64,000 nt of DNA from Actinomycetota bacterium (GCA_036258555.1 DATADL010000250.1:1226-65225), one strand, 5' to 3'. Shown: positions 1 through 57,663, numbered from the stretch's first letter. Numbers and translations are program-made. The notes: generated from the sequence alone by a model not told the origin.

Positions 1-2247
1 CCCTTCGACGAGCTACGCCGCGCGATCAATGTCCACCGCGTCGACGTCACTTCCACGGACAGCGGTGCAGACGATCCTGTGGCCTGCGGTGGATCGGGGG
101 CGACGGCGCGCACTTTCTTCGACGCCACGTTCTGTGGCGGTGGAATCCAACGGCTTCTCGTGGTGGACAACGCCACTGCCCTGAGCACTGCAGGCGCCCA
201 AGTGCCTCAATGGGACGTGGTTCTGGTACTCGTCAACTCGACGATCTACGGCGGAGCGGGCGGCGCCGTGGCGACCTTCTCGCTCGCCGCGGGCGCCGAG
301 CAGATCGCACTCCACGAGCTGGGCCACACGGCTTTCGGACTCGCCGACGAGTACGAAACCCTCCGAGGGTGCGCCAGCGGGGAGACCGACCGCAACAACC
401 ATCCGGCTACTGCAGAACTTGCCCAGGCGAATGTCACGATCAACACCGATCGGGCGACCCTGAAGTGGCGCCATCTGGTTCGGGCAGCCACCCGCATCCC
501 GACCACTGAGAACGCAAACTGTGCGCAGTGCGATCCGCAGCCGAGCCCGGTGCCGGCCGGCACCGTCGGTCTCTTCGAAGGAGCCGACTCCTACCACTGC
601 GACGGCTACCGGCCGGAGTTCAACTGCATGATGCGAACTCTCGGCAGCCCCTTCTGCGCAGTCTGCCGCGAGCGGATCTCCGCAGTACTGACGCGGCACC
701 TGCCCGAGGCACTCGAGGACAAGGTCGTCCTCAGCGACAGCAGCGGGCGGGGGCCGGCCCTCGCCTCCCACGATGGGCGCCTGTTCTTGGCCTGGAGGGG
801 ATCGGGCAACCCGCAGCTGAACCTGATGTTCTCCGACGACAACGGGGCGACGTTCCGCGGCAAGAAGGTCTTTGGCGACACCAGCCCCCACAGCCCCGCC
901 CTCGCTTCCCACGGCGGGCGCCTGTTCTTGTCCTGGGCGGGTCGGGGGAACGAGAACCTCCACGTCGCGAAGGTAAGGTTCTTCGCCAATACGGCGGGGG
1001 GATTCGGCATCGACGGGCTAGAGGACAAGGTCGTCCTGAGCGACAGCAGCGGGCGGGGGCCGGCCCTGGCCTCCCACGATGGGCGCCTGTTCTTGGCCTG
1101 GAGGGGATCGGGCAACCGGCAGCTGAACCTGATGTTCTCCGACGACAACGGGGCGACGTTTCGCGGCAAGAAGATCTTGGGCGAAACCAGCCCGCACAGC
1201 CCCGCCCTCGCTTCTCACGGCGGGCGCCTGTTGTTGTCCTGGGCCGGAGAGGGGGACGAGAATCTCAACGTCGCCAAGGTCAGGTTCTTCGCCAATACAG
1301 CCGGGGGATTCGGCATCGACGGGCTAGAGGACAAGGTCATCCTCAGCGACTCCAGCGGGAGCGGGCCGGCCCTGGCCTCGTACCAGCGCTCTCGCTGCCG
1401 GCGCCTGTCCTTGGCCTGGAAGGGATCGGGCAACCCGCAGCTGAACCTGATGTTCTCCGACGACAACGGGGCGACGTTCCGCGGCAAGAGGGTCCTGGGC
1501 GACAGCAGTCCCCACAGCCCCGCCCTCGCTTCCCATGGCGGGCGCCTGTTGTTGTCCTGGGCCGGGGAGGGAGACGAGAACCTCAACGTCGCCAAGGTCA
1601 GGTTGTCGCTGTTGACAGAGATCTTGTGGCCGCGGCGAGTGCTCGCGTCGCACGGCGGCGGTAGCCCCGACGAAGACCCAAGGCGCGTCCTCGGCGACCC
1701 CAATGGAACGGTGTACGTGGTCATACCGGGCGCAGTCACCGGGACGGTCGGCGCGACTTTCGGAGATTTTGGAGAGTCCCGTGGCAGGTACTATCCGCGC
1801 CTCGTCGAGCTGCTGGGCGCGAGCCCTCCCGTGACTCACAACCCCGTGCGGCCGGAGGACTTTGCACGCGCCGACGTCGTGGCCTTCGAGCGCAACGGAC
1901 CAGGCCCGGCGCCGAGCGGAGGCTGGGAGAGGTGCGACTTCGTCTTCACGGACGCCGTCACCAGCGTTTCGGTGAGCGTCGACGACAGCGCCGGCGCGGC
2001 GCTCGACCCACACGTCCTGGGGAACGGCAGCATCACCGGGTCGGCGTACAAGAACTACTTCGGCGTGACGAGCGGCGACCCCATCGCGGACGGCGAGGTC
2101 ATCTCGTTCCTGTTGTTTGCACTGCCAGAGCTGAACAAAGACCACCCGAATTTCACCGTCGAAGTGAGGGGTCGGGCCCCCGGAGAGACGGCGTCCTTTA
2201 CACCTGACATCGATGCCATCGGCCTGCTGCGCTGCGCAGATTTTTGA
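1..2247 (+). CDS. Peptidase M64 (IgA-peptidase-like) zinc metalloprotease fused to three ~102-aa Asp-box repeats plus a C-terminal domain; 5' end lies outside the window
   Basis: The frame of the 79..2247 ORF is open back to nt 1. HELGHTAFGLADEY gives HExxH plus the ADEY signature I recall for family M64. Each repeat carries SDDNGATF (SxDxGxTF Asp-box/BNR-like). Confidence 0.8.
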   Translation, partial: PFDELRRAINVHRVDVTSTDSGADDPVACGGSGATARTFFDATFCGGGIQRLLVVDNATALSTAGAQVPQWDVVLVLVNSTIYGGAGGAVATFSLAAGAEQIALHELGHTAFGLADEYETLRGCASGETDRNNHPATAELAQANVTINTDRATLKWRHLVRAATRIPTTENANCAQCDPQPSPVPAGTVGLFEGADSYHCDGYRPEFNCMMRTLGSPFCAVCRERISAVLTRHLPEALEDKVVLSDSSGRGPALASHDGRLFLAWRGSGNPQLNLMFSDDNGATFRGKKVFGDTSPHSPALASHGGRLFLSWAGRGNENLHVAKVRFFANTAGGFGIDGLEDKVVLSDSSGRGPALASHDGRLFLAWRGSGNRQLNLMFSDDNGATFRGKKILGETSPHSPALASHGGRLLLSWAGEGDENLNVAKVRFFANTAGGFGIDGLEDKVILSDSSGSGPALASYQRSRCRRLSLAWKGSGNPQLNLMFSDDNGATFRGKRVLGDSSPHSPALASHGGRLLLSWAGEGDENLNVAKVRLSLLTEILWPRRVLASHGGGSPDEDPRRVLGDPNGTVYVVIPGAVTGTVGATFGDFGESRGRYYPRLVELLGASPPVTHNPVRPEDFARADVVAFERNGPGPAPSGGWERCDFVFTDAVTSVSVSVDDSAGAALDPHVLGNGSITGSAYKNYFGVTSGDPIADGEVISFLLFALPELNKDHPNFTVEVRGRAPGETASFTPDIDAIGLLRCADF
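712..1604 (+). repeat. Three near-identical in-frame tandem repeats with a 306-nt period (copies start at 712, 1018 and 1324); the third copy carries a 12-nt insertion and diverges after 1604
   Basis: Direct comparison of nucleotides and peptides: LEDKVVLSDSSGRGPALASHDGRLFLAWRGSGN.QLNLMFSDDNGATFRGKK... occurs three times. Confidence 0.9.
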
Positions 2248-2358
2248 CGAGAGGGGCCTGGTCTCCTTCGGCAGCAGCCGACCCGTCGCGCTGCGAGAAG
2301 ACTCTCAGGCCGCGCCCCGAGAGTCTTCTCGCTCGCCTTGCCGGTCGGCTGTTCCTCG

Positions 2359-2949
2359 CTAGTTCAGACGTTCGAACTTCAGGCGATCCACGACGACCGT
2401 CCCGTAGGCCGTGGTGTTCGTCAGGTTCGCGCGGACGTGCACGTCGACGGCGCCCGTGCTCGACGGCAGTTGGTACGACTTCTGGATCGTCTGGAACCCC
2501 GTCCCGGTTGCACACAGGAACGCGTTCCGCTCGCCCAGGAACGTCCCGCCGACGCTCGTGTACGCGTGGATCGTGAGCCTCGCCCGGAAGTCGCAGATGT
2601 TGTTCTGCGTCACGTTCTGCAGCTTCACGTCTGCCGTCGCCTCGTAGGTCTGGTTCGGACTCGCGCTGAAGTTCTTGTACATGCCGGCGTCGCCGGTGTT
2701 GTCCGCCTCCTGCTTGATCTTGAAGTACTGATGGTTGTCCTGCGTCCACAGGTCGCGCTCGTTGCTGGAGAAGTCGTTCGTGCCCTGCAGATAGCGGTCG
2801 TCGACCCCGTCGGCGTCGCCTCCGTCCGTGAACAAGTCGTGGTTGAAGATCACGCCGATGCTGGGATCCGCAGTGGCCGGAGAAGCCAGGGCGGCGACCA
2901 GCACTGCCAGGATCGCGATCGCGGTCGATCGCCTGATCACATGCGTCAT
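2359..2949 (-). CDS. Secreted hypothetical protein, possibly a jelly-roll/carbohydrate-binding-module-like fold
   Basis: N-terminal signal peptide (AIAILAVLVAALASPATA). Asn/Thr/Gln/Tyr-rich composition unlike its neighbours. Clean ORF with an ATG start at 2949. Confidence 0.7.
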   Translation of the reverse strand: MTHVIRRSTAIAILAVLVAALASPATADPSIGVIFNHDLFTDGGDADGVDDRYLQGTNDFSSNERDLWTQDNHQYFKIKQEADNTGDAGMYKNFSASPNQTYEATADVKLQNVTQNNICDFRARLTIHAYTSVGGTFLGERNAFLCATGTGFQTIQKSYQLPSSTGAVDVHVRANLTNTTAYGTVVVDRLKFERLN

Positions 2950-3133
2950 GATGCAACTCGTTTCTCTCGCGCGTTGACGAGCGTAATGAAGCGGTTGACA
3001 GCTCTACGCCTCCGGTTCGAGGCGGTCACACCGCGCGATGCACCTGCTAGTACATGTCCCCGTCAAGAGAACGGTCAAGAGGGTTACGGAGATCCTGGCT
3101 CCAACCGGCCGTGGCACTCGCGCCCGCAATGGA

Positions 3134-4696
3134 TCACCGCTGGCAACCGTGCGACCCGGGCGCGACGTCGCGGGTCTCACCCCCACGCACGGAGACGCAA
3201 TCGCGAGTTCCGTCGGGCCAGAGCACCTCGACCGTCGCGGTCTCTCGAAGCCCAAGCCCGAAGTGGACAGGGTTGGTCTGAGATTGGCTCGTGAACGCCA
3301 CGCCGTCCGTCACCTGATGCCAGCGCCGGAGGTCGTCGCTTCTCAACAAGAGGCGGGCGCCATAGGCATACGGGTTCTTCGGCCCGCCCAGCAGCCTCAC
3401 CGCGACCCAATTGCCTGCGACGGTCCGATTCGCGAGCAGCATCGACCGGCCAAAGACGTCGAGGTACCCGTTCGTGACGAACAGATCCATCGCACCATCC
3501 CCGTCGAAGTCCGCGACCGAAGCGGAGTCCCCGTTGCCCCGGCTCGGTCCGCCGAGTGACGGCACAGCGGTCCTGACGAGTCTCCCTGCGGTGTTCAGCC
3601 ACAGCGAGTCCTCGTGGTTACGGGCGCCGGGGCGGGGGGGATCGCCGGTCGCGCCCTCCACCAGGAAGAGGTCGAGGTCCCCGTCGTTCTCCACGTCCAG
3701 CCACTGCGCCACCCGTCCCGCGCGCAGTCGCGTGTCGATCGTCACGGTCGTCTCCGCGCGTCCGCGCCGCAGGACGAGCAATCGTTCCTCGGATACGAGC
3801 GCCAGGTCGGGGTACGCATCGGACGCGAGCTCCCCCCACGATGCCGACAACCAGGAACGGCCCGTGACGCGCGGCAGGTCGATCTCGTGAAAGGTCCCGC
3901 CTCGGTTCTCGTACGCGCGAGACCCGACGAACCCATGACCCAGGACCAACAGGTCGGGATCGCCGTCCACGTCCCAATCGCTCCAGGTAGAGCTCCTGGT
4001 CGCGATCTCCGACGACGCTTCGGATTCCACCGCGACGAAGCCGTCACCGGTGTTCTCGTACAGGCGGTTCGGAACCCCGCTCCTGATCTCGTTCGCGACG
4101 TACAGATCGAGGTCCTCGTCCGAGTCGTAGTCCAGCCAGTGGACCGACCGCGCGCGACCTAGTGGGTCGTCCACCCGAAGGTCGCGGGCATGGTCGGCCA
4201 GGCCCCCGTTCGCGGAGAGCCACAGCCTGTTGGGTCCGGAGCCCTGTCCGTCCTGCGCCCCCGAGCCACAGTAGAGATCGGGAAGGCCGTCGCCGTCGGC
4301 TTCGCCCCAGGCGCAACCGTGCCTGTCGTAGATGAGCCTCCCCGGGGCGGGCTCGTTGAGAGACGACTCCATCTCCAGCCCCCGCTCGAACGTGGCTCCG
4401 GAGCTCGTGAAGTAGCGCGCATGTCTCTTGTGGCGGTTGATCAGCAGATCGGGCGACCCGTCCAGATCCGCGTCCACGAAAGTGGATCCCCAGCTCGGGG
4501 TCGCCGGCAGATCCAAACCGACGCGCTTCGTCACGGGGACGAAAGTGATGCGACCCGGGGATCCGGCGATCGGAGGAGGGGTGGGCGGCTCGGGCGACGA
4601 TCCGGTGCACGCCGCCGCACTCGAGACCGCCAACAACATCACGGGGGCAAGAGCTCTAATGCGCACGAAGGGGACCGACCTCGCGTCAGCCGTCAC
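3134..4696 (-). CDS. FG-GAP/VCBS-repeat lipoprotein with a C-terminal ASPIC/UnbV-like domain (CRTAC1-like family)
   Basis: Lipobox-like AVSSAAAC. Repeated DxDGDGxxDL motifs (DADLDGSPDLL, EADGDGLPDLY, DVDGDPDLL, DFDGDGAMDLF). The tail resembles ASPIC/UnbV. The start may lie slightly downstream. Confidence 0.75.
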   Translation of the reverse strand: MTADARSVPFVRIRALAPVMLLAVSSAAACTGSSPEPPTPPPIAGSPGRITFVPVTKRVGLDLPATPSWGSTFVDADLDGSPDLLINRHKRHARYFTSSGATFERGLEMESSLNEPAPGRLIYDRHGCAWGEADGDGLPDLYCGSGAQDGQGSGPNRLWLSANGGLADHARDLRVDDPLGRARSVHWLDYDSDEDLDLYVANEIRSGVPNRLYENTGDGFVAVESEASSEIATRSSTWSDWDVDGDPDLLVLGHGFVGSRAYENRGGTFHEIDLPRVTGRSWLSASWGELASDAYPDLALVSEERLLVLRRGRAETTVTIDTRLRAGRVAQWLDVENDGDLDLFLVEGATGDPPRPGARNHEDSLWLNTAGRLVRTAVPSLGGPSRGNGDSASVADFDGDGAMDLFVTNGYLDVFGRSMLLANRTVAGNWVAVRLLGGPKNPYAYGARLLLRSDDLRRWHQVTDGVAFTSQSQTNPVHFGLGLRETATVEVLWPDGTRDCVSVRGGETRDVAPGSHGCQR

Positions 4697-6308
4697 GCGA
4701 GCACGCTTTCAGCTCCGAGTAGGTGAGCGCGGTCGAGAAGACGTTCTTCTCCCGCTCTGCAGCGGGCGGTTGGTCGTCCGGCGCGTTGTCGCCGATCGTG
4801 TAGGCGCGCAGATACTCGGCCACGTCGGCTCGCTCGAAACCCGCGTCCGCGAGAACGGCCTCGTCGAGGAGCAGCTGGAACCCGCGATTCGCCAGCACGA
4901 CCTCCTCGCCGTCGGGGCTGAACCGTCGATTGACGTCCCTCGTGACCTCGGCGACGTCGATCGGCCATCCCCCTCTCGTCTCGGGATAGGGCGCCATCCC
5001 GTGGTCGGCCGTCAGCGCGAGGACGTAGCGTCCCCTCCCGACCAGCTCGTCCAACGCGCGCACCAGTCGCCCGAGCTCGGCGTCCTGTTGCTCGAGGTTC
5101 TCGCGGACCTGGGGCTCTTCCATGTTCCATGCGTGACCCGCCAGATCGGTGCTCTTGTAGTTCGTGAAGAAGAGATCCGCGACGGAATCCGATCCGAAGC
5201 CTTCCCGGCGCAGCAACTGGACGATCTTGTCGGTCTGCAGGATGTTCCACGGAGGCATCGCGCGGATCAAACCGTCCTGAGGGTTGAGCGGGGTGCCGAG
5301 CCACATCCCGTCGGCCAACCCGTCTCGACCGTCTACCTCGGCGATAGCGGCCTCGAGACCCGATACGTCGTGTACGTATCCCGGAAGCCGGTAGAAGTCG
5401 TGGTTCGTCGTGAAAGAGGTAGGAGTCGAGAGATCGTCCAGAACCGCGATGTCCTTGTCGCCCTCCACCTGGGACCCGTGGCCGATCATGCCTACGTGCC
5501 AGAAATCGTGTGCGACGACGGCGACCTCCGCACGATCACGGTTCGCAGAGTCCCAGAGGTCCGCAAGTGCCCGCTTCTCGAGCAGGCGAGGCGAACCGTC
5601 CTCCCACGGATCGACGACGACGCCCTCGAGCTGGATCTTCACGTCCGGAAGCCCGTGCGTCGCGGCGAAGAACCCCGTGCCCAGCGTCGCGTGGACGGCA
5701 GGCGTGACCGACGGCGACGACCCGGCGGTCGCTTTCGTGTACGTGGTCCCGCGCCTCTGCAGGTCGCGCAGATTGGGCCACGCTCGAGACCATCGCCGGA
5801 GGACGTTGGTCCCCGCTCCGTCCCAGACCACCGTCACGATCAGGCGCGGAGCGGAATCGGTCCCTTCGACCAAGGCCTCGTCCAGCACGCGGCCATCGCG
5901 CTCTGGGAACCGGTGGAACCGGAGAAGCCGTGCGTAGGTCGGAGCGATGTCGGCGATCGTGACCGAACGAGAGGAACGGACTCCCGCTCGGATGTGTCCC
6001 GGGCCGAATAGGACCAGCGGAATGCGCTGCGTGAAACCCCACGGCGTGGAATGGATGGTGCCGAGCTGGTTCGGCGCATCCTCCACCATCACTACGTCGC
6101 CGGAGCGCCCCGCGAAGTACCCACGCATAACCCTTCCGAGAATCCGTGGGGGGACGTCGCACTTCGGCGACGAGCCGGCATCGGCGTGAACCGGCGGCAC
6201 GGCGACGCCCTGCCGCCGTCTACGCCCCGCCTCCTCGTTGCTCGACGCGTATACGGCGGCTACGGCCATCGAGAGGATCGCCAGGGCACCCGCGACGTAT
6301 GGTCTCAC
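4686..6308 (-). CDS. Alkaline-phosphatase-superfamily protein (type I phosphodiesterase/nucleotide pyrophosphatase-like), membrane-anchored and extracytoplasmic
   Basis: N-terminal hydrophobic anchor. Motifs SSPSVTPAVHATLGTG and LTADHGM are typical of the AP superfamily metal/nucleophile sites. Confidence 0.7.
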   Translation of the reverse strand: MRPYVAGALAILSMAVAAVYASSNEEAGRRRRQGVAVPPVHADAGSSPKCDVPPRILGRVMRGYFAGRSGDVVMVEDAPNQLGTIHSTPWGFTQRIPLVLFGPGHIRAGVRSSRSVTIADIAPTYARLLRFHRFPERDGRVLDEALVEGTDSAPRLIVTVVWDGAGTNVLRRWSRAWPNLRDLQRRGTTYTKATAGSSPSVTPAVHATLGTGFFAATHGLPDVKIQLEGVVVDPWEDGSPRLLEKRALADLWDSANRDRAEVAVVAHDFWHVGMIGHGSQVEGDKDIAVLDDLSTPTSFTTNHDFYRLPGYVHDVSGLEAAIAEVDGRDGLADGMWLGTPLNPQDGLIRAMPPWNILQTDKIVQLLRREGFGSDSVADLFFTNYKSTDLAGHAWNMEEPQVRENLEQQDAELGRLVRALDELVGRGRYVLALTADHGMAPYPETRGGWPIDVAEVTRDVNRRFSPDGEEVVLANRGFQLLLDEAVLADAGFERADVAEYLRAYTIGDNAPDDQPPAAEREKNVFSTALTYSELKACSRDG

Positions 6309-6461
6309 GCAATCCTCAGCCTTGATCCGAGGTCGGTTGTGAACGTCGCAGAGATTACCTACGTGGTCGACGTGAGCTCACCGCTCGGCCCGTCTGCAAG
6401 AAGTCCGCGAGAGTGGTCTCCCACAACGCCGATCGGAGCGGCCGGGCGCGGCCGCCGACCG

Positions 6462-6475
6462 CGGAGTACACTCCG
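6462..6475. promoter_or_regulatory. Short palindrome CGGAGT-AC-ACTCCG about 40 nt upstream of the first precursor gene (candidate operator or 5'-UTR hairpin)
   Basis: 6-bp arms are exact reverse complements. Lies in the 200-nt divergent intergenic region. Confidence 0.25.
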
Positions 6476-6512
6476 GGCAAACCGGGGATAACGGGCGACT
6501 CGGGAGGTGCCC

Positions 6513-6716
6513 ATGGCGGCTCGTGGGGGGCGCGGCAAACTCTCGTTGCACAAAGAGACTCTGCGCGCGCTGCAGGACGTCGATCTCGACGCGGTTGTCG
6601 GCGGAGGAGGCGCCACGATCACGTGCGAGCCGGCGACGATCGAGACGGCTGTTCGCACCGTGTGCGACCCACCCCCGTGGGTCAGCACCAGCCCACCCAC
6701 CCACATGTGTCAGTAA
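6513..6716 (+). CDS. RiPP (lanthipeptide-like) precursor peptide A, 67 aa
   Basis: GGGAGG RBS 5 nt before the ATG at 6513. Leader KLSLHKETLRALQDVDLDAVVGG ends in Gly-Gly. The 36-aa core GGATITCEPATIETAVRTVCDPPPWVSTSPPTHMCQ has 3 Cys and 9 Ser/Thr. Sits directly upstream of LanC. Confidence 0.7.
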   Translation: MAARGGRGKLSLHKETLRALQDVDLDAVVGGGGATITCEPATIETAVRTVCDPPPWVSTSPPTHMCQ

Positions 6717-6745
6717 CTCGATCTAGGGGACGCGAGGAGGTGGAA

Positions 6746-6922
6746 GTGGGGAACGAGATCAAGAAGCTCACGCTGGTCAAGGAGACGCTGCGCGACCTGA
6801 ACGAGCGCGAGCTGAAACGCGCCGCCGGCGGATACAGGGAGGTGCTCCCGCCGCCGACCGGGTGCGAGAACACCGGCATCATCTGCGAGTACTCCGAACG
6901 GACCTGTTGCTTCTCGGTCTGA
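6746..6922 (+). CDS. RiPP (lanthipeptide-like) precursor peptide B, 58 aa
   Basis: Hidden in the tail of track ORF 6413..6922. GAGGAGG RBS 5 nt before the GTG at 6746. Leader KLTLVKETLRDLNERELKRAAGG is paralogous to the leader of A. The 29-aa core YREVLPPPTGCENTGIICEYSERTCCFSV has 4 Cys and 5 Ser/Thr. Confidence 0.7.
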   Translation: MGNEIKKLTLVKETLRDLNERELKRAAGGYREVLPPPTGCENTGIICEYSERTCCFSV

Positions 6923-6997
6923 GAGCCGTCGGGTAAGGCGGGCGGCTCGACCGCTCGCCTTATCCCTCGTGTCGCGGCGTCGTGTCATCGTGACCCG

Positions 6998-8278
6998 GTG
7001 ACGACAACGTGGAGACCGCTGCTCGAAGGGCGGGCCGCGGCCAGAGCGGACGACGCCGTGACCGGCATCCTCGCCGCGCTGGAGCAACCACCTCGCGCAA
7101 GCGATCGCGACGACGTCGACGATGTTCAGCAACGGATAGACGAGCTGTCCTTGGCGCGGGGACGCGCGGGCTACGCGCTCTTGCTCGGTTCCAAAGCCTT
7201 GCTCGACGACGACCGAGACACCGAAGCGCGGTGCGCGGCCCTTCTCGGCGAGGCGATCGACGGCCTCGCGACGGTGCCGATGGGTCCTTCGTTGTTCATG
7301 GGTTTCTCGGGCGTCGCATGGGTCGCGGACGTCCTGGACCGGGCGTTGTTCCGTTCTCGCGAGGACCCGAACGAGGCGATCGACGAGGCCCTGGTCGCGT
7401 TGCTCGAGAGCGGGGACGTCCGAGGCTTCGACCTGATCAGCGGTCTCGTCGGGCTCGGCGTGTACCTGCTCCAGAGACTCCCGCGTCCCGCCGCCGTCGC
7501 GGGCTTGCAGCGAATCGTCGAGCTGCTCCGTCTCCGCGGCCGCGGCGCCCCCGACGGCGTCTCGTGGTTCGTCGCGGCCGAGGAGTTGCCGGCGGGGACG
7601 CGTGAGGTCTTCCGCAAGGGTTACTTCAACCTGGGGATGGCCCACGGGTGCGCCGGAGTGATCGCGCTGACGGCCGGCGTCGTCAGGAACGGCGTAGCGG
7701 TCGCCGGGGCCCGGGAGCTCCTCGACGAAGCCGTCTCGTGGCTGCTCGCACGCGAGACCCGCGACGCCGAGGATTCGGTGTTCCCTGCCGTGATCGGACC
7801 GGACGGCCGCGCCGACCCCGGCCGGACCGCGTGGTGCTACGGCGATCCGGGCGTCGCCGCGGCTCTCGCGCTAGCGGCGTCGGCCACGGGCGAACGGACC
7901 TGGCGCGCCGAGGCCCACAGGATCGCTCTCGGCGTCGCCCGACGCCCGGAACAGCGGTGCGGCGTTCGGGACGCGTGCCTCTGCCACGGATCTGCAGGCC
8001 TCGCCCACATCCTCAACCGTCTCGCGGTCGAGCTCGAGGACGAGGAGCTCGCCGACGCCGCTCGCAAGTGGTTCGACAGGACGCTGGACATGAGAGCCCC
8101 CGGCACCGGAGTCGGTGGGTTCCGGACCTACCGGGCGGGCCGGGACGCCGACGCGCGCTGGATCGACCATCCGGGCCTTCTCGCCGGATCGACCGGGATC
8201 GCACTGGCGCTGCTCTCGGCGATCCGTGACGACCCCCCGGTCTGGGACGGCGCGCTCCTGCTGTCCCACCCTGCGTAG
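6998..8278 (+). CDS. lanC: LanC-family lanthionine synthetase (cyclase) component, stand-alone
   Basis: All three LanC zinc/acid-base motifs are present: GMAHGCAG (GxAHG), TAWCYGDPG (WCxG) and LCHGSAGL (CHG). The size (426 aa) is typical of class I cyclases. Confidence 0.85.
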   Translation: MTTTWRPLLEGRAAARADDAVTGILAALEQPPRASDRDDVDDVQQRIDELSLARGRAGYALLLGSKALLDDDRDTEARCAALLGEAIDGLATVPMGPSLFMGFSGVAWVADVLDRALFRSREDPNEAIDEALVALLESGDVRGFDLISGLVGLGVYLLQRLPRPAAVAGLQRIVELLRLRGRGAPDGVSWFVAAEELPAGTREVFRKGYFNLGMAHGCAGVIALTAGVVRNGVAVAGARELLDEAVSWLLARETRDAEDSVFPAVIGPDGRADPGRTAWCYGDPGVAAALALAASATGERTWRAEAHRIALGVARRPEQRCGVRDACLCHGSAGLAHILNRLAVELEDEELADAARKWFDRTLDMRAPGTGVGGFRTYRAGRDADARWIDHPGLLAGSTGIALALLSAIRDDPPVWDGALLLSHPA

Positions 8279-8323
8279 ATGCGGGCGGGGTGAACCGGCG
8301 TCTCCGAACGAGCGTCTAAACGA

Positions 8324-9322
8324 ATGATGACGTCCCTCCACCGAGTGGCCACCGGGCTTGCGGTGTTGGTCGCGATCGTCGGAAGCGGCTGCGAGCCGGA
8401 CCGCCGGTCGATTTCGAGAGGCTCGCGAGAGCCGTCTCCCTTCGTCCGCGAACCGGAACCGCGTTGCAGCGACGAGCGCGTCCCCCACCGGAAACCTCAC
8501 GTCCGGGCGATGGCTTTCCCACGGGGGCCGGGGCCCGCCTACGTGGGTCTCGGAACGGGCGGCGTCGTGTACTACGCACGCGACGCGCGCGAGCACCGCG
8601 GCTGGTACTACAACAAGGTCCTGATCGGGATCTCGCCGGACTACCGCCTGGGCATGTCGGTCAACGGCCGGCGCCGGGACGGGCGCGAGATCGTGCGATG
8701 GCACAACGGTCGTTTCCCCGGCGAGCCGACCGTCGTGCTGGACATCCCCGCCGACGAAGGCGGAAGGGGGTGGCGCTTCGTGGCGGGAGACATCCTGATC
8801 CGCGCCCCGGGCTGCTACGTCATACGACTCGAGGGCAGCGACTTCCTGGAAGAGGTCCGCTTTCGGGCCGAACCGGCTCCGCGCTCCGGGATCCGGTGCC
8901 GCGCGCCGCGAGGCGCGTACGCGCCGGCGGTGACTCCTGCCGAGGGACCTGCCGGGTCCGAGGCGACGGTGTCCGGTCCGTTGCCCTTGTACGGCAAGTC
9001 CGGCCGCTATCGCGGTCCGGCAGGGAAGAAGGTCGAGCTGTGGTGGAACCTCGTCCCGAGTCGTTACACCACTGCCGTCTCGTTTGGATCCTCGTCTCCC
9101 GAACCACAAGCGGCACGCGACGGGAGGGCCCTCATGGTCGGGCGGACGCGTCTCCGGGGCGAGTGCAGGTTCGCGATCGATTTCGACGTCCCCGCGGTCG
9201 CGCCGGGCGCCTATCCGCTCGTCGCGATCGGTTACGGCGAACGCGGAGCGGCGAAGCTTCCACCGATGCGCTTTCGTGTGACGGCCGGCGGCGCAGAGCG
9301 CCCTCAGGGAGGAGGCGGCTGA
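8324..9322 (+). CDS. Lipoprotein of unknown function, probably co-transcribed with lanC (possible LanI-like immunity lipoprotein; speculative)
   Basis: Lipobox AIVGSGC after a hydrophobic N-terminus. Lies 45 nt downstream of lanC on the same strand. Confidence 0.65.
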   Translation: MMTSLHRVATGLAVLVAIVGSGCEPDRRSISRGSREPSPFVREPEPRCSDERVPHRKPHVRAMAFPRGPGPAYVGLGTGGVVYYARDAREHRGWYYNKVLIGISPDYRLGMSVNGRRRDGREIVRWHNGRFPGEPTVVLDIPADEGGRGWRFVAGDILIRAPGCYVIRLEGSDFLEEVRFRAEPAPRSGIRCRAPRGAYAPAVTPAEGPAGSEATVSGPLPLYGKSGRYRGPAGKKVELWWNLVPSRYTTAVSFGSSSPEPQAARDGRALMVGRTRLRGECRFAIDFDVPAVAPGAYPLVAIGYGERGAAKLPPMRFRVTAGGAERPQGGGG

Positions 9323-9504
9323 TCTCGGTCCGGCCTCACCGCGGCGGGAGGGACCCAAGCGAGCGGAACGATCGTTCGCCGGGAACGAGGTTGACCTCCC
9401 GGGACACGCAGCCGCCGTCGCGGTCCAGGGCGTCTCCACGTACGAGTGGCTGACAAAGGAAAGCCCCGCGAGTCTGTAGTCGCCGCGTAAGGGCGGGCCG
9501 TGAA

Positions 9505-10437
9505 CTATGCCGGGGATCGTCCGAGAAGTGCCGGCTCGGATGCCGCCGGCGCGGGTGATCCTTCGTCCCAGTTCTCCCACGTCTGGATCAGCCAGAAGAC
9601 AGCGAACAGCACGATCTCGTAGGCCTCGACGACGAACGTCTCGTGGTCGCCGCCGATCCCGAGGACGGTTATCGCGATCCCGCCGACCGGCATGAGGAAC
9701 GCGAGCACCGCGTAGAGCACGAAGTACGTGCGCGATTCGCCGTCGCGATTGGAGAGTGCCTTCGCGATCACGGCGCCCGTGAGGAAGACGAACATGAAGA
9801 GCGCCGCCAGACCGTGGACCTGCTTGTAGAACCCGCTCCAGGTCTCGATCAGCCACCACCCGAACGCCAGCGCTGCGGCGGTGAAGGCAAGCGACACCAG
9901 AGTTCCCGTGTCGACCGTCTGGATCGTCCCGCGGACCCCTCGATTCACGAAGAGCGCGACGACGGCCGCGATCGCGAGCCCGAAGGCGCCGGCAAGAAGA
10001 AGCGCGTCGAAGTTGTTCTCCACGTTCGCGATGACCCAGTCCGCGAGCTTCCCGTTCTGTATCGGCAGCGGGTTCGGCGGGATCGACCAGCACTTGCCGA
10101 CGCCGGTGATCGGGACGATGGCGACGACGGGGGCGAGCATGCCCGCGATGTTGAGGCACACGTCCTCGAACGAGGTGCGGCCCTTTATGACGATCAACGC
10201 CAGGCCGATGGCGATCAGCGCGCCGACGAATATCGCGCGCGCGGGCGTGTAGTAGTAGGCGCTGATCGACGTCTGCCAGCACCCGACCTTGTCGTGCTCG
10301 ATCGCGACCGCGGCCGCGAGGAAGAAGACCGCACCGACCATCCCGATACGGAGATAGCGATACGTCTTGATCGCGTCGTCTCGCGTCAGCCGTTCTGGAC
10401 CCTCGAACAGCGTCCTCACCGTCGTCCCCCTCCCCAC
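9505..10437 (-). CDS. Polytopic integral membrane protein, unknown function
   Basis: At least 7 hydrophobic segments. Coding-like composition. No recognised motif. Confidence 0.7.
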   Translation of the reverse strand: MGRGTTVRTLFEGPERLTRDDAIKTYRYLRIGMVGAVFFLAAAVAIEHDKVGCWQTSISAYYYTPARAIFVGALIAIGLALIVIKGRTSFEDVCLNIAGMLAPVVAIVPITGVGKCWSIPPNPLPIQNGKLADWVIANVENNFDALLLAGAFGLAIAAVVALFVNRGVRGTIQTVDTGTLVSLAFTAAALAFGWWLIETWSGFYKQVHGLAALFMFVFLTGAVIAKALSNRDGESRTYFVLYAVLAFLMPVGGIAITVLGIGGDHETFVVEAYEIVLFAVFWLIQTWENWDEGSPAPAASEPALLGRSPA

Positions 10438-10553: not shown

Positions 10554-11561
10554 TCAGCTCTTCTTCGCCCGGCTCCTGGAGACGCGCGGCGGCTCGTCCG
10601 GCTGCTTCGGGTAGACGGGCGGCCACGGCGCGTCCATGAGGCCGTTCGCCCGGTCACGCTCGTGCATCTCGAGGAACGGCTCCAGCGATTGCGGGCGCTC
10701 GTTCATGTCCAGCCACGGGTCCTCGCCGTCCGGCAGCCGCTCGGGCAGCGACGCGATCGTCAGCTCGTCGGGATGGACCTCGTCTACGTCCTCCCACCGG
10801 AGCGGCGTCGACACCTGGGCTCCCGGGCGCGCCCTCACGCACCAGGCCCCGAACACGGTCTTGTGAGGCGCGTTCTGGTTGAAGTCGACGAACACCCGCT
10901 CGCCGCGGTCCTCCTTCCACCACTGCGCCGTGACGACGTCGGGACGCCGCCGCTCGAGCTCGCGGGCGACGGCGACCGCCGCGGCACGGACCTGGTACGA
11001 GTCCCAGCGCGGCTCCAGCCGGACGTACACGTGCATCCCCTTGTTCCCCGTCGTCTTCGGGTAGCCGACGACGCCGAGCTCGTCGAGGAGACCCCGCAGC
11101 TCGTGTGCCGCCGCGCGTACGTGCGTGAAGTCCGTGCCGGGCTGTGGATCGAGGTCCAGCCGGAGCTCGTCCGCGACCTCCGGCTCGGCCGCGAGGTACG
11201 GCCACACGTGGAACCCGAGGCAGCCGAGGTTGACCGCCCACGCGACGTGCGCGAGATCGGCGGCGACGAGGGCACGCGACTGCGTCCCGTTCGGGGTGCT
11301 GACGATCGTCGTCTGCAACCATTCCGGTGCGGACTCGGGGATGCGCTTCTGGAAGAACGACGACCCGGTCGCGCCGTTCGGGAAGCGCTGCAGCAACAGG
11401 GGACGGCCCCCCATCGTGCGCATCAGCGGATCGGCGAAACGCAGGTAGTGCCGGACGAGGTCGAGCTTCGTGTCCCCGCGCTCCGGAAAGAACACCTTGT
11501 CGGGGCTGGTGATCCTTACCTCGCGGCCCCCGATGACCACTACCTCGCTCTCGCGCGCCAC
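10554..11561 (-). CDS. LigD-type polymerase/primase (PolDom, AEP superfamily) stand-alone protein for NHEJ
   Basis: Only the last 335 codons of track ORF 10554..13367 look coding. GTG start at 11561, 9 nt after the ligase stop. Contains VRITSPDKVFFP, FFQKR, PNG..S, GNKGMHVYV and VFVDFNQN, which are typical of LigD Pol domains. Confidence 0.85.
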   Translation of the reverse strand: MARESEVVVIGGREVRITSPDKVFFPERGDTKLDLVRHYLRFADPLMRTMGGRPLLLQRFPNGATGSSFFQKRIPESAPEWLQTTIVSTPNGTQSRALVAADLAHVAWAVNLGCLGFHVWPYLAAEPEVADELRLDLDPQPGTDFTHVRAAAHELRGLLDELGVVGYPKTTGNKGMHVYVRLEPRWDSYQVRAAAVAVARELERRRPDVVTAQWWKEDRGERVFVDFNQNAPHKTVFGAWCVRARPGAQVSTPLRWEDVDEVHPDELTIASLPERLPDGEDPWLDMNERPQSLEPFLEMHERDRANGLMDAPWPPVYPKQPDEPPRVSRSRAKKS

Positions 11562-11569
11562 GGCCCTCG

Positions 11570-13105
11570 TCAGCCCCTCGCGCTCGCCGGCAGGAGACGG
11601 CGGAGATCGTCGAGCGTGTCCGCTTCGTCGGCCCGCTTGTCCGGCCGGTACCGCTTCACCCGCGCGAAGCGGAGCGCGATCCCGCCGGGGTACCGCGTCG
11701 AGGTGTGGACGCCGTCCAGCGCGATCTCGACGACCAGCTCGGGCCGAACCAGGACCGCGATCCCCTCGCGCCCCACCTCGCGCTCGAGCAATGCGTTCGT
11801 CTGCCACCTGAGGAGGTCGTCGGTGAGGCCCTTGAAGCACTTCCCCACCATCGCGAACTCGTCCGTGCCGGGCACCCGTGCACCGAGGTGAAGGTTGGAG
11901 AGCCATCCCTGCCGGCGGCCGTGCCCCCACTCCGCACCGAGCACGACGAGGTCGTAAGTCTGCACGGGCTTCACCTTCCGCCACGCCTTGCCGCGACGAC
12001 CTGCGGCGTACGGCGAGGCGGCGTCCTTCACCACGACGCCCTCGTGCCCCGCCTGCAGCGCGTCGTCGAGCACGCGCTGGGCCTCGCCCGGATCGGACGT
12101 GAGCACCGACGGGATCCTGAGCTCCGGTGCGAGCGCGTCGAGCCTCGCCGCGCGGTCCGCGAGCGGCGTGTCGAGCAGGTCCTCGCCGTCGACGTGGAGG
12201 AGGTCGAAGACGAACGTCACGACCCCCTCCGGGGGCGCGTCGGCGTCGATGCGGGACATCGTCTCCTGGAACGGCGCGGGTCCCCCCACGTCCATCCACA
12301 GCGCCTCTCCGTCCAGGACGACCTGGCTGACGGGAAGCCGCCTCACGGCGTCGGCTATGCCCCCCAGCGCGTGAGTGATGTCGTTCAGGTTGCGCGTGTA
12401 GATGCGGACGTCTTCGTCGCGACGATGGATCTGGATGCGGATGCCGTCGAGCTTCCACTCGACCGACGCGCGTTCGAAGCCGGCAACGGCCTCGCCCACG
12501 CCGGCGGCGGACGAGGCGAGCATGGGCAGGATCGGACGGAAGATCTCGAACCCGACGGCGCGGAGCCCCGCCTCGCCCTCCGTGAGCGCGACCGCGGCCG
12601 TGCGCGGGACGTCGCCCGAGAGCATCGACGCCCGCCGGACGACGTCGGCCGCCACCCCCGCCGCCGACGCGATCCCCTCGAGCATCAATCCGGTGAGGGC
12701 CCCCTGTCGGAGCTCGCCGGTGAACAGCCGCCTCAGGAAGCCGGACTCCGCCTCGGTCGCGCGACCGAACAGGTCCTCGACGATCTGCCGGCGAAGCCCT
12801 GCGGAGCCTGCGCCGGTCGCTTCCTGCACCGCCGTGATCGCGCGGTCGACGTCGTGGACCGCGAGCGACGCCGCGGAGGCGGGCGGTGCGTCGATCCCGT
12901 AGGCGAGCGCGTAGCCCACGCCGACGCGTCCCTGTCGCGGCACGCCGGACAGGAAGCCGACCGCGATCGGGACCTCGTCCGCGTCGAGCCTCCGCAGGAG
13001 ATCCGCGAGGGTCGCGACCTTCCGGGAACGCGACGCAGTCCGCGCGAGCTCGTCGGACGCGGCGACGACCTCGGCGAACAACGTCATCGCCGGAAAATAC
13101 GGCAT
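11570..13105 (-). CDS. ATP-dependent DNA ligase (three-domain Lig1/LigB-like: DNA-binding, adenylation and OB domains)
   Basis: Adenylation motif I EWKLDGIR, plus VLDGEAL, EGVVVK and WRKVKP motifs. An alternative ATG lies at 13087. Confidence 0.85.
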   Translation of the reverse strand: MPYFPAMTLFAEVVAASDELARTASRSRKVATLADLLRRLDADEVPIAVGFLSGVPRQGRVGVGYALAYGIDAPPASAASLAVHDVDRAITAVQEATGAGSAGLRRQIVEDLFGRATEAESGFLRRLFTGELRQGALTGLMLEGIASAAGVAADVVRRASMLSGDVPRTAAVALTEGEAGLRAVGFEIFRPILPMLASSAAGVGEAVAGFERASVEWKLDGIRIQIHRRDEDVRIYTRNLNDITHALGGIADAVRRLPVSQVVLDGEALWMDVGGPAPFQETMSRIDADAPPEGVVTFVFDLLHVDGEDLLDTPLADRAARLDALAPELRIPSVLTSDPGEAQRVLDDALQAGHEGVVVKDAASPYAAGRRGKAWRKVKPVQTYDLVVLGAEWGHGRRQGWLSNLHLGARVPGTDEFAMVGKCFKGLTDDLLRWQTNALLEREVGREGIAVLVRPELVVEIALDGVHTSTRYPGGIALRFARVKRYRPDKRADEADTLDDLRRLLPASARG

Positions 13106-13170
13106 CGCCCAGACGCTCTCTCGCGAGTCGGGTGCGGATCCGAGCGCGGGTTCCGCGGTACACCAGTGCG

Positions 13171-13800
13171 ATGAGGCGGTACTGGGCGGTAGCAGGCGTC
13201 ACGTTCGCGGCGTTCACGGTCGTCTTCGTCGCCGTCGAGGCGGCCGGGGTCTCGCTCCTGACCGACCCGCGGTCGGCGATGGACGGCGGCGGGTGGGCCG
13301 CCGGAGCGATCGGCGTCTCGCTCCTCGCGGTCGACGCCTTGCTGCCCGTCCCGTCGAGCGTGGTCATGGTCCTGCACGGAGCGCTCTACGGAGCCGTCGC
13401 GGGCGCGGCCCTCAGCCTCGCCGGCAGGATCGCGGCCGCCGCCGTCGGGTTCGCCCTCGGACGGCGCGGGGGCCCGGCCGTCGACCGGTACGTGGGCGCC
13501 GGCGAGCGTCTGCGTTCGCAAGAGCTCCTGGACCGCTGGGGCGTCCTCGGGATCGTCGCGTCTCGCCCGGTGCCCCTGGTCGCGGAGACGGTGATGGTCC
13601 TCGCGGGCGCGGCGCGCATGCCCTGGGGCGCGGCGCTCGCGGCCGCCGTCGCGGGCTCGCTCCCCGAGGTCGTCGTCTATGCGCTTGCAGGGTCCGTCGC
13701 GGCGAGCTTCGGCAACACGGCCGCAATCTTCCTCTCGCTGCTGGCGGTCGTCGCCGTCGCGTGGGTCGTCGTCGAGAGAAGAGCCCGCGTCCGGGCCTAG
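13171..13800 (+). CDS. DedA/VTT (SNARE-associated) family membrane protein
   Basis: Only the distal 209 codons of ORF 12886..13800 look coding (ATG at 13171). Hydrophobic, with the LLPVPSS..V motif typical of DedA. Confidence 0.65.
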   Translation: MRRYWAVAGVTFAAFTVVFVAVEAAGVSLLTDPRSAMDGGGWAAGAIGVSLLAVDALLPVPSSVVMVLHGALYGAVAGAALSLAGRIAAAAVGFALGRRGGPAVDRYVGAGERLRSQELLDRWGVLGIVASRPVPLVAETVMVLAGAARMPWGAALAAAVAGSLPEVVVYALAGSVAASFGNTAAIFLSLLAVVAVAWVVVERRARVRA

Positions 13801-24580: not shown

Positions 24581-26041
24581 TCAGGGGCAGTCGCCGGCGG
24601 GCGCCGGCTCGGCGAGCTCGTTCGCGCCGAAGACCACGCCGCGCAGCTGCTGGTCGGCCTCGTACTGCGCGTCGGCGAGCGGGCGCTCCGGCATCTCCGC
24701 CTCACCCCGCAGCACCTCGTATCCCGCCGCGACCGAGTGCTCGTTGATCCCGCCGTACCCGAGCACCGAGTACGCGTCGGCGGCGGCGGGCATCGTCTTC
24801 CAGGCGACCGGCGTCGTCGTGCAGCCCACGCAGAACGGGTTGCCGCCGGGGCCGTACTCCACGTAGTCCGGGGGCCGCGGCTCCCCTGCCCAATGGACGT
24901 CACCGTCGTCGCGGCCCTCCGACGGTAGGCCCTCCGCGGTGTGGAGGAAGACGTCTCTCAGCTCCTCGAGCGTGAACGCACCGTCGGCGAGCGGGCCCTT
25001 GGCCACGACCCCCTCGCGCCCGCACGCGACGAGGCCGTCGCGCACCCCGGTGAAGTCCGATCGCAGCAGCCGCCGCGCCTCGGCCACGAGCGCGGCCGCG
25101 CCTCCCGCCGCATACGGAGACGCCGCGCTCGTGCAGCACGCGATCGGGTCGGGCCTCATCTCTTCGACCGACCGCGCGATCGCGGTCATGCCCGCGTACG
25201 CGTCGGCGACGACGTGCGGCGGCGACCCCGACCACAACGTCGCCTTCCCGTTGTCGTGGCCGCCGACGAGCACCACGCCCGGCGGCGCCGTCGAGAGGAG
25301 GTAAGTCGGCGTGGGGGCCGCTCCGGCGAGATACGCCGTCCCGTTGCCCGAGGCCGCGAGCGTCAGCATCTTGGCCGCGGCGGCGGAGAAGGCCTCGGTG
25401 GTCGCGCCCGGGACCGGCGGCGGGACGAGGTTGATCCACGAGTTGGACTGGACGTCGATCCACCCTTGCTCGGCGGCCCACTCGACGCTGCGAGCACCCA
25501 GCCCCTCGATGGCGACGATCCGCGCCGTCGGAGCGAGCGAGCTCGGCGACCCTGCCGCACGCGAGGCGGTCATCGTGCCGTGCCCGTGGTCGTCCAGGAT
25601 GTTGTGCTCGGCGCAGTCCTCCTGGAGGTAGGCGGCCGCCGGCGGCACCTGGATGGGCGACTCGCAGCTCGTGCCGCCGTCGCCGAACGAGATCGCGCCG
25701 GCGATCCGGGTCCCCGGGATCCAGTACAGCTTGCCGGGCTTCACCGCCCGCCACACCGCCTCGTCGCGCTCGAACGCCTCGTCGTACGGCGCCCCGAGCG
25801 TGAGCTTCAGCGCCTCGGCGTCCTCGGGGAACCCCGGGAGGTAGGTCGACGGGTGCCGCCGCGCCAGCGGGGACGTGTCGCGGAACGCGGGGCTGTAGGG
25901 GTTGATCCCCGTGTCGATGAGCGCCACGACGGCCTGCGGCGTGCGGGGGCGTGCGGCGGCCTTCGCGGCCCCCGGCGCGCCCAGCGCTCCGCCGACGAGA
26001 GCGAGGCACAGCGTGGGTGCGGCGACTCGCGAGGTCTTCAC
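24581..26041 (-). CDS. Secreted S8 (subtilisin-family) serine peptidase
   Basis: Signal peptide. Catalytic-triad contexts ALIDTGI (Asp), HGHGTMTAS (His) and CCTSAASPYAAG (Ser). GTG start at 26041. Confidence 0.8.
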   Translation of the reverse strand: MKTSRVAAPTLCLALVGGALGAPGAAKAAARPRTPQAVVALIDTGINPYSPAFRDTSPLARRHPSTYLPGFPEDAEALKLTLGAPYDEAFERDEAVWRAVKPGKLYWIPGTRIAGAISFGDGGTSCESPIQVPPAAAYLQEDCAEHNILDDHGHGTMTASRAAGSPSSLAPTARIVAIEGLGARSVEWAAEQGWIDVQSNSWINLVPPPVPGATTEAFSAAAAKMLTLAASGNGTAYLAGAAPTPTYLLSTAPPGVVLVGGHDNGKATLWSGSPPHVVADAYAGMTAIARSVEEMRPDPIACCTSAASPYAAGGAAALVAEARRLLRSDFTGVRDGLVACGREGVVAKGPLADGAFTLEELRDVFLHTAEGLPSEGRDDGDVHWAGEPRPPDYVEYGPGGNPFCVGCTTTPVAWKTMPAAADAYSVLGYGGINEHSVAAGYEVLRGEAEMPERPLADAQYEADQQLRGVVFGANELAEPAPAGDCP

Positions 26042-49964: not shown

Positions 49965-49988
49965 TGCCCCAGCTTATGCTCGGCCACG

Positions 49989-57587: not shown

Positions 57588-57663
57588 GCCGCAGCCGTAC
57601 CCGGTGGGGGGCCGCGAAAAACGCCGGAGGGTGGCCCTGGGTGCCCGTGGGAAAGGAAGGAGC

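Follow-up and report, generated by a model that had tools for sequence, protein, structure and literature searches.

Two lanthipeptide precursors and a LanC cyclase without an adjacent dehydratase: a possible split module of a class I pathway in an Actinomycetota genome

A 64,000-nucleotide (nt) stretch of a genome from soil, labelled "Actinomycetota bacterium" (hereafter, the window) encodes two putative lanthipeptide precursors, preA and preB, followed directly by a class I lanthionine cyclase, LanC. We think that these genes are a functional satellite (or split) module of a class I pathway, in which the LanB dehydratase and a C39/PCAT exporter would be supplied in trans, with the conserved L1a leader as the handle, and we put the probability of this reading at about one half. 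Because the same peptides and an orthologous LanC occur together in canonical clusters, the cassette looks like the front half of a class I cluster. The initial annotation had described it as a minimal, atypical locus for a peptide that ribosomes make and that is modified after translation (RiPP). The precursor-precursor-LanC unit is genuine, but comparison with its relatives indicates that it is not an independent minimal RiPP system and that its origin is a class I cluster of the canonical kind.

The product of preA has an L1a-type leader, ...KLSLHKETLRALQDVDLDAVVGG, and the core GGATITCEPATIETAVRTVCDPPPWVSTSPPTHMCQ, while the product of preB has the leader KKLTLVKETLRDLNERELKRAAGG and the core YREVLPPPTGCENTGIICEYSERTCCFSV. 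The leaders are paralogous (KLSLHKETLRALQDVDLDAVVGG in preA versus KLTLVKETLRDLNERELKRAAGG in preB). There are 3 Cys and 9 Ser/Thr in core A and 4 Cys with 5 Ser/Thr in core B, and each contains PPP, so both peptides combine an N-terminal leader with a Cys- and Ser/Thr-rich core, as expected of class I precursors. Both also match the NCBIfam model for class I lanthipeptide leaders ending in GG (NF038153, lant_leader_L1a; curated cutoff 22 bits), preA with 22.4 bits (residues 8-31) and preB with 25.3 bits (residues 6-29). We rejected another family, TIGR04149 (GG-leader radical-SAM RiPPs of Bacteroidota): preB scores 24.2, which is below the cutoff of 25, preA has no match, and the partner is missing too, as there is no radical SAM domain in the scanned open reading frames (ORFs) of the window. 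What the initial annotation said of these genes is accurate, including their coordinates, lengths, and strong ribosome-binding sites, the 75-nt gap between preB and lanC, the 45-nt gap between lanC and the next ORF, and the paralogous Gly-Gly leaders and PPP-containing cores; the comparison to RiPP precursor families that it proposed places both leaders in the class I L1a family.

The same two peptides are found beside LanC in at least seven other loci. Given this conservation, and given the constraint on the preB core that is described below, we consider the short ORFs to be real genes, and the initial annotation's worry that they might not be conserved can be set aside. The C-terminal motif of preA, TVC..PPPWVSTSPPTH[ML]CQ, is conserved in the orthologues from L001, L003, L005, L008, and L171 (these are our identifiers for related loci; see Table 1). 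The first Cys of preA (in TITC) is seen in the window copy only. In the public record, accessions run from HEX2295711 (an M64 peptidase) to HEX2295716 (LanC) with three larger genes between them, which leaves room for one short gene. From this numbering, one of preA and preB is probably unannotated.

LanC matches PF05147 across the full profile (E = 8.5e-40), and NCBI's prediction (HEX2295716.1, 426 amino acids (aa)) agrees with our ORF. Among proteins of known structure, its best relatives are MadC (8BYK, E = 2e-19) and NisC (2G02), both class I cyclases. Alignments to both preserve D145 (in FDLISG), H216 (GMAHG), R276, W279-C280-Y281 (AWCYG), and C329-H330 (CHG), and these active-site residues are invariant in 19 relatives. 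The Cys, Cys, and His that bind zinc in these cyclases correspond to C280, C329, and H330, and the catalytic His and Asp to H216 and D145. Judging from these alignments, the catalytic set is intact and the active site is of the standard class I type, which agrees with the earlier description of a stand-alone LanC with all of its catalytic motifs. We also considered whether this could be a LanCL-type protein outside of RiPP biosynthesis, which the initial annotation had named as a way in which it could be wrong. We rejected this, as the precursors are directly upstream and the closest relatives are the LanCs of LanB-containing clusters; LanC groups with the class I cyclases of RiPPs.

The other components of a class I pathway are absent from the window. 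Pfam scans of about 50 ORFs, including every predicted gene of at least 100 aa, found no PF04738 or PF14028, LanM, Pkinase-LanC, Peptidase_C39, or radical SAM domain. A hidden Markov model (HMM) built from 33 LanBs of related loci, run on all six reading frames of the window, had no match at E <= 0.01, and a tblastn search that used the two closest LanBs turned up no LanB remnant in the window, including downstream of LanC. So neither a LanB (PF04738 plus PF14028) nor a split LanB is encoded within these 64 kb, and there is no C39 ATP-binding cassette (ABC) exporter or LanP/LanT either. The Pfam, HMM, and tblastn searches thus bear out the initial annotation, which had reported no dehydratase, leader protease, or exporter in the window. 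The only genes of a loosely lantibiotic-like kind, the S8 subtilase and the two ABC-2 transporter pairs in Table 1, are generic and sit 16-43 kb from the cassette.

To see where the cassette comes from, consider its relatives. A protein search with the window LanC gave hundreds of matches, and we examined the contigs of the closest ones (Table 1); here and below, the presence of LanB was judged on sequence up to 10 kb on each side of LanC. L007 and L008 are the nearest relatives with usable contigs. The full-length LanBs of L001, L005, L170, and L172 are 1042-1061 aa long and contain PF04738 and PF14028 where we looked up the product, and lanB abuts or overlaps the stop codon of lanC in L001, L005, L170, and L171. 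LanB-containing L001 and L005 have no C39-ABC gene within 7-10 kb, so unlinked components are usual in this family. Across loci with and without LanB, the preB core VLPPPTGC[ED]NTGIICEYSERTCC is nearly invariant and the leader motif is shared. A shared leader fits with one leader-reading dehydratase serving several cyclase-substrate modules.

In a neighbor-joining tree of LanC, the window, P0002, P0003 (L008), P0004, and P0005 (L007) form one clade, and the sister clade includes LanB-containing L005. L003, which has no LanB, nests beside LanB-containing L001, L170, and L171, with nonsynonymous divergence (dN) of 0.12-0.15. These positions imply that LanB and the cassette parted on two or more occasions and that an intact cassette was left each time; by parsimony, lanB was lost a single time in the ancestor of the window clade. 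Both L003 (at 7317-8876, in a different relative orientation) and the window have, 0.5-2.3 kb from the cassette, a gene for an ATP-dependent DNA ligase, and the two ligases are 74% identical. Also, L003 and L001 have upstream genes in common. These shared neighbors point to vertical descent with deletion rather than to a mobile cassette.

Table 1. Features of the window and layout of related loci (positions of window features are in nt of the window; positions in remarks on related loci refer to those loci)
Feature	Position	Strand	Remarks
preA, LanA precursor, 67 aa	6513-6716	+	ATG start; ribosome-binding site GGGAGG at 6502-6507, six bases upstream
preB, LanA precursor, 58 aa	6746-6922	+	GTG start; ribosome-binding site GAGGAGG at 6734-6740, five bases upstream
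Hairpin	6931-6965	+	GC-rich, 15-bp stem; between preB and lanC
LanC, class I lanthionine cyclase, 426 aa	6998-8278	+	PF05147; 75 nt after preB
332-aa ORF, possible lipoprotein	8324-9322	+	signal-like N-terminal segment, Cys23; 45 nt after LanC
ORF with LigD primase-polymerase domain	10554-13367	-	
ATP-dependent DNA ligase	11570-13105	-	
PF12902 protein, 902 aa	16137-18845	-	Ferritin-like domain
S8 subtilase	24581-26041		generic
PF12902 protein, 432 aa	34855-36153	-	Ferritin-like domain
ABC-2 transporter pair	36763-38426		generic
ABC-2 transporter pair	49764-51664		generic
Ku	56631-58187	-	
RTX calcium-binding repeat protein	57553-58854	+	HemolysinCabind, 6 stretches
Locus L001			LanC 61% identity; preA-preB-LanC-LanB (1050 aa); hairpin ~4214-4240
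Locus L005			LanC 61% identity; preA-preB-LanC-LanB (1042 aa); hairpin ~9940-9962
Locus L170			LanC 64% identity; LanC-LanB (1051 aa); contig begins just 5' of LanC, precursor region outside it
Locus L171			LanC 62% identity; preA-preB-LanC, then 881-aa ORF at LanB position, cut by contig end; hairpin ~2258-2290
Locus L172			LanC 53% identity; three precursors-LanC-LanB-183 aa-C39 ABC exporter; hairpin ~3466-3493
Locus L007			LanC 72% identity; precursors-LanC, then unrelated genes; no LanB; hairpin ~3392-3421
Locus L008			LanC 74% identity; precursors-LanC, then unrelated genes; no LanB; hairpin ~1098-1127
Locus L003			LanC 62% identity; precursors-LanC, then unrelated genes; no LanB; hairpin ~9806-9835

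The hairpin between preB and lanC is shared as well. Folding of 6915-7000 gives a minimum free energy of -44.1 kcal/mol (z = -3.2), and an equivalent hairpin, GCGGGCGGC...GCCGCCCGC, lies 3' of the last precursor gene and 5' of lanC in all seven of the relatives examined, often with a short U-rich tail. A consensus terminator scan did not call the hairpin in the window, because its U-tract is weak, and scans of 6200-9600 for sigma-70 promoter and terminator consensus sequences found nothing. Lanthipeptide operons usually yield more transcript for the structural genes than for the enzymes. The hairpin is likely an attenuator or terminator that would lead to more precursor than enzyme transcript.

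Both LanC and preB appear to be maintained where LanB is absent. For LanC, the ratio of nonsynonymous to synonymous divergence (dN/dS) is 0.195-0.236 among three members of the LanB-less clade (the window, L007, and L008), as compared to 0.22-0.26 among LanB-containing L001, L170, and L171. In the preB core, dN is about 0-0.04 while dS is 0.3-1.1, and there are 0-2 amino acid changes where dS is 0.3-0.7. Of the 21 conserved core codons of preB, 7 differ between the window and L008 with no amino acid changes, and 5 differ between the window and L007 with 2 conservative amino acid changes. All Ser, Thr, and Cys of the preB core are kept in the window, L007, L008, and L003. LanC and preB are under purifying selection, with no visible relaxation after the loss of LanB.

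With no lanB next to lanC, either the gene for the dehydratase is located elsewhere or the mode of action of the module is one that has not been described. Under the reading that we favor, one transcription unit would encode two different LanA precursors, whose L1a-type leaders end in Gly-Gly; a stem-loop 3' of the precursors would probably lower read-through into lanC; and lanC, as the next gene, would provide a dedicated zinc cyclase. The module would descend from a canonical cluster of precursors, LanC, LanB, and perhaps an exporter, and the adjacent lanB would have been lost at this position in the ancestor of the window clade. The peptides would still be produced. Their Ser and Thr would be dehydrated by a glutamyl-tRNA-dependent LanB that is encoded elsewhere in the genome and that recognizes the shared KLxLxKETLRxL leader, the local LanC would close the thioether rings, and an unlinked C39-peptidase ABC exporter would cleave after the Gly-Gly and export the product, which we infer to be a lanthipeptide and possibly a two-peptide one. 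The initial annotation had offered three options: that the dehydratase and exporter are elsewhere, that dehydration relies on an unrecognized enzyme, or that the chemistry of this LanC is a different one. The first of these appears to be the most likely. The last appears to be the least likely, since the window LanC is orthologous to the LanCs of LanB-containing clusters with the same peptides.

Several points weigh against a LanB acting in trans. NisB, NisC, and NisT are reported to act as a complex, and co-location of their genes is the norm. No LanB was found for the MAG (metagenome-assembled genome) that the window comes from, within the 64 kb of it. As a weak test, we checked the NCBI-named entries among the 120 closest relatives of LanB, and they included no HEX229... 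accession (the mark of this MAG). The preA orthologue of L007 (2880-3200) is frameshifted between leader and core, and its PPPWVSTSPP motif, which is otherwise invariant, reads PPARVSMSPP (W to R and T to M); either one precursor is decaying in this LanB-less relative or the Logan contig was misassembled. The flanking genes differ among the window, L007, and L008. And if LanB was lost three times in the window clade, independently and not long ago, then the dN/dS values would mostly reflect the time with LanB.

Some of these points would suit a relic, that is, a leftover from the deletion of lanB (and lanT), with no dehydration, no lanthionine, and non-functional genes that have not yet decayed. 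LanB is directly 3' of LanC in sister lineages and is replaced here by unrelated genes; the differing flanks mean that the losses could be separate and recent; L007 has its damaged preA; and the cassette lies in a variable region with low GC content at third codon positions (GC3), as illustrated by L173, whose M64 peptidase is 83% identical to that of the window and lacks the adjoining genes. We nevertheless consider a relic to be unlikely: LanC is uninterrupted and has all of its catalytic residues in all four LanB-less loci (the window, L007, L008, and L003), its dN/dS in the LanB-less clade equals that in LanB-containing relatives, the preB core has just 0-2 amino acid changes per 5-7 changed codons among LanB-less members, and, by parsimony on the tree, one event at the root of the window clade accounts for its loss of lanB. 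A more mundane explanation is that this is an ordinary cluster that was interrupted, with lanB and lanT in the part of the source contig, roughly 8 kb, that the window leaves out. The contig (from an NCBI third-party-annotation MAG) is 72,036 nt, and the M64 peptidase gene at the left edge of the window (HEX2295711.1) is cut by that edge, so the contig continues leftward. But in every relative examined, lanB abuts or overlaps the end of lanC. Here, the left edge lies at least 6.5 kb from the cassette, beyond unrelated genes that encode secreted enzymes and are mostly on the opposite strand, and the right edge lies 55 kb away. Furthermore, in L173, the 680 nt upstream of M64 hold a 160-aa gene and no LanB. 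An interrupted cluster is the least probable of the explanations that we considered, and we would be quite surprised by it. The remaining explanation is that the cassette functions without any LanB, either because there is a dehydratase of an unrecognized type or because LanC has a role other than ring closure on dehydroamino acids that LanB has made. Such function could be general among the many LanC/L1a loci of soil Acidobacteriota and Actinomycetota that lack LanB. About half of related LanC loci have no LanB nearby, many of these keep L1a-leader peptides that are rich in Cys, Ser, and Thr, and several MAGs have 2-4 such loci and no LanB-containing ones in the retrieved set. Similarly, 1392 LanC-like proteins in RefSeq have no known dehydratase nearby and are unclassified (Walker et al. 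2020, PMC7268733), and stand-alone LanCs are reported from Bacteroidales genomes that have no LanB at all (PMC10352776). On the other hand, the peptides and LanC of the window have orthologues in canonical LanB clusters, where the preB core is identical; there is no conserved candidate enzyme, as the neighbors differ in every LanB-less actinobacterial locus; the active site of LanC is of the standard type; and "no LanB" in the genomes that carry these loci holds for the neighborhood of LanC only. We rate this explanation below a relic and well above an interrupted cluster. The general form of the idea, that L1a precursor-LanC modules are widespread and selectively maintained in uncultured soil Actinomycetota and Acidobacteriota and need no canonical LanB, thanks to an unrecognized enzyme that makes dehydroamino acids or to a different thiol chemistry of LanC, is more doubtful again.

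Two counts show how often LanB is lacking. Scanning GTDB species genomes, which do not include that of the window, with a LanC alignment gave 80 loci, mostly from Thermoanaerobaculia and other Acidobacteriota (best match, 62%), of which 45 had no match to the LanB profile and one more had a spurious weak match only, with some flanks cut short at contig ends. The estimate of about half comes from all of the loci that we fetched, limited to those in which LanC is flanked by 5 kb or more on either side (n = 80): 38 have LanB and 42 do not, and in 19 of those 42 there is an L1a-leader peptide within 2.5 kb of LanC. We asked whether cryptic LanBs might lie beside these LanCs, but ten large adjoining ORFs turned out to be ordinary enzymes or transporters (an OPT transporter, PhoD, S8, an amylase, a kinase-TPR protein, PCAT, MacB, a sulfatase, and others). 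In a metagenome scan, the matches listed included relatives at 48% identity or less only and none from the window clade.

Many of the acidobacterial LanB-less loci contain, in order, a CNNM transporter, LanC, a peptide with "...SQSIQSGETYCWCSKTCDCCE...", an alpha/beta hydrolase, and an M23 peptidase. There is no dehydratase among the neighbors that are kept beside these LanCs (CNNM, the alpha/beta hydrolase, the M23 peptidase, and a glycosyltransferase). L048, L060, L063, and L074 are LanB-less loci that share the synteny of CNNM, hydrolase, and peptidase. Of the LanB-less loci, L032, L063, and L074 are on closed MAG chromosomes (OY970373.1, OY970330.1, and OY969112.1, respectively), and L003 is from GCA_035942255.1. 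In many Thermoanaerobaculia and Holophagales, an L1a-leader peptide with the core "...SQSIQSGETYCWCSKTC[DN]CCE..." is encoded just 3' of a LanB-less LanC. We found peptides of the SQSIQSGETYCWCSKTC type in L014, L016, L018, L020, L025, L027, L057, L058, and L062, at about 11250-11500 in the 21-kb loci. As for the MAGs with 2-4 LanB-less LanC loci each, none of their retrieved loci contains LanB.

The initial annotation had also included the 332-aa ORF downstream of LanC as a lipoprotein and a possible LanI-like immunity partner. Its lipobox, as read from the sequence, is imperfect (IVGSGC), it has no match to any Pfam or NCBIfam family, and a homologue is absent from about 170 related loci except for L009, which is from a near-identical strain (99% identity). 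The genes 3' of LanC are different in L003, L007, and L008. So of the proposed precursor-precursor-LanC-lipoprotein unit, the precursors and LanC are conserved in other genomes and the lipoprotein is not. We rejected the LanI assignment for lack of a family match or of co-conservation beyond L009, and the ORF is probably not part of the lanthipeptide system even though it is on the same strand.

Other genes near LanC in the related loci may be of interest. A protein of about 200 aa from the MST/DinB_2 family is encoded directly 3' of LanB in L001 (8808-9431) and L170 (4512-5105) and is absent from the window; in L172, the same position after LanB holds a 183-aa protein (8033-8584) with no Pfam match. 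For this lanthipeptide family, the MST/DinB_2-type protein might serve in tailoring or in thiol transfer. L007 and L008 also encode a third, unrelated L1a-leader peptide upstream. The PD40/Tricorn proteins beside LanC in L007 and L008 are not shared synteny, as they have only repeat-level similarity (26%) and are on opposite strands.

The left part of the window, which includes the cassette, differs in composition from the rest. GC3 is 0.81-0.85 in the genes between 79 and 9322, versus 0.89-0.98 for most other genes in the window, and the bulk GC content of 1-9400 is 65-68%, versus about 70% elsewhere. To the left of the cassette are the M64 peptidase with BNR repeats, an FG-GAP/ASPIC protein, and a phosphodiesterase of the alkaline phosphatase family; in L173, the M64 peptidase has no adjoining FG-GAP, phosphodiesterase, or lan genes. 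This suggests that 1-9400 is a variable or acquired stretch that is rich in secreted enzymes. Elsewhere, the window encodes non-homologous end joining proteins (the LigD primase-polymerase domain, the ligase, and Ku). The longest-ORF calls of Ku and of the RTX protein overlap on opposite strands, so one of the two starts is over-extended. Two large proteins contain the PF12902 domain and appear to be unrelated to the lan cassette.

How does this locus compare to known systems? Like canonical class I clusters of the nisin type (LanA, LanB, LanC, LanT/P), it has leaders with Cys/Ser/Thr-rich cores and a NisC/MadC-type zinc cyclase whose catalytic residues are all present. Unlike them, it lacks a LanB beside LanC, and it has no exporter or protease. 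The nearest canonical examples are the actinobacterial loci L001, L005, L170, L171, and L172, which have L1a leaders, the same peptides, an orthologous LanC, and the hairpin; the peptides of these loci and of the window are predicted lanthipeptides. As in two-peptide lantibiotics, there are two dissimilar cores with paralogous leaders that are co-encoded and co-conserved. Characterized two-peptide lantibiotics are class II and usually have one LanM per peptide, whereas in the window one LanC would serve both peptides. That the products of preA and preB act in synergy is pure conjecture.

The prochlorosins, which are class II, are a precedent for components that are not all in one cluster: a single ProcM acts on precursors that are scattered around the genome (PMC7268733), and a conserved leader lets one enzyme serve unlinked substrates. 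However, only the precursors of prochlorosins are scattered, and the bifunctional LanM carries out both steps. In the window, it would be the precursors together with their own cyclase that are scattered, and the missing piece is the dehydratase. The stand-alone LanC-like genes mentioned above also have no recognizable dehydratase in their neighborhood, but the window differs from them in having class I precursors upstream and in its descent from LanB clusters, and so its LanC is not of the LanCL type or endoglucanase-like. Nor is the locus a member of the "lanthiphage" family, which always has a LanB-like and a LanC-like enzyme plus accessory proteins (bioRxiv 2024.06.26.600839). Our literature search found no paper on cassettes of precursors and LanC that are kept without an adjacent LanB. 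Because its neighborhood contains neither LanB nor a protease or exporter, we would class the locus as a split or satellite variant of a class I cluster and not as a complete member. The most economical outcome would be an unlinked, ordinary LanB.

Mining pipelines call a class I cluster only if LanB and LanC are neighbors and leave the rest as "unclassified" (PMC7268733), so standard mining rules would discard LanB-less cassettes such as this one. Yet in the window and its relatives, selection still maintains the precursors and cyclase of a well-defined peptide family even though the gene for the dehydratase has left the neighborhood. Also, the strongly conserved preB core (VLPPPTGCENTGIICEYSERTCCFSV) represents an uncharacterized product that is worth making. 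If dehydration does occur in trans, then class I pathways can be modular, with one leader-reading LanB and several cyclase-substrate cassettes, and this would change how class I clusters are mined and refactored. If instead there is no LanB in these genomes, then there would be either an unknown route to lanthionine or a new function for LanC. The locus is a concrete and testable case for the modularity of class I pathways, with a small chance of pointing to new dehydration chemistry.

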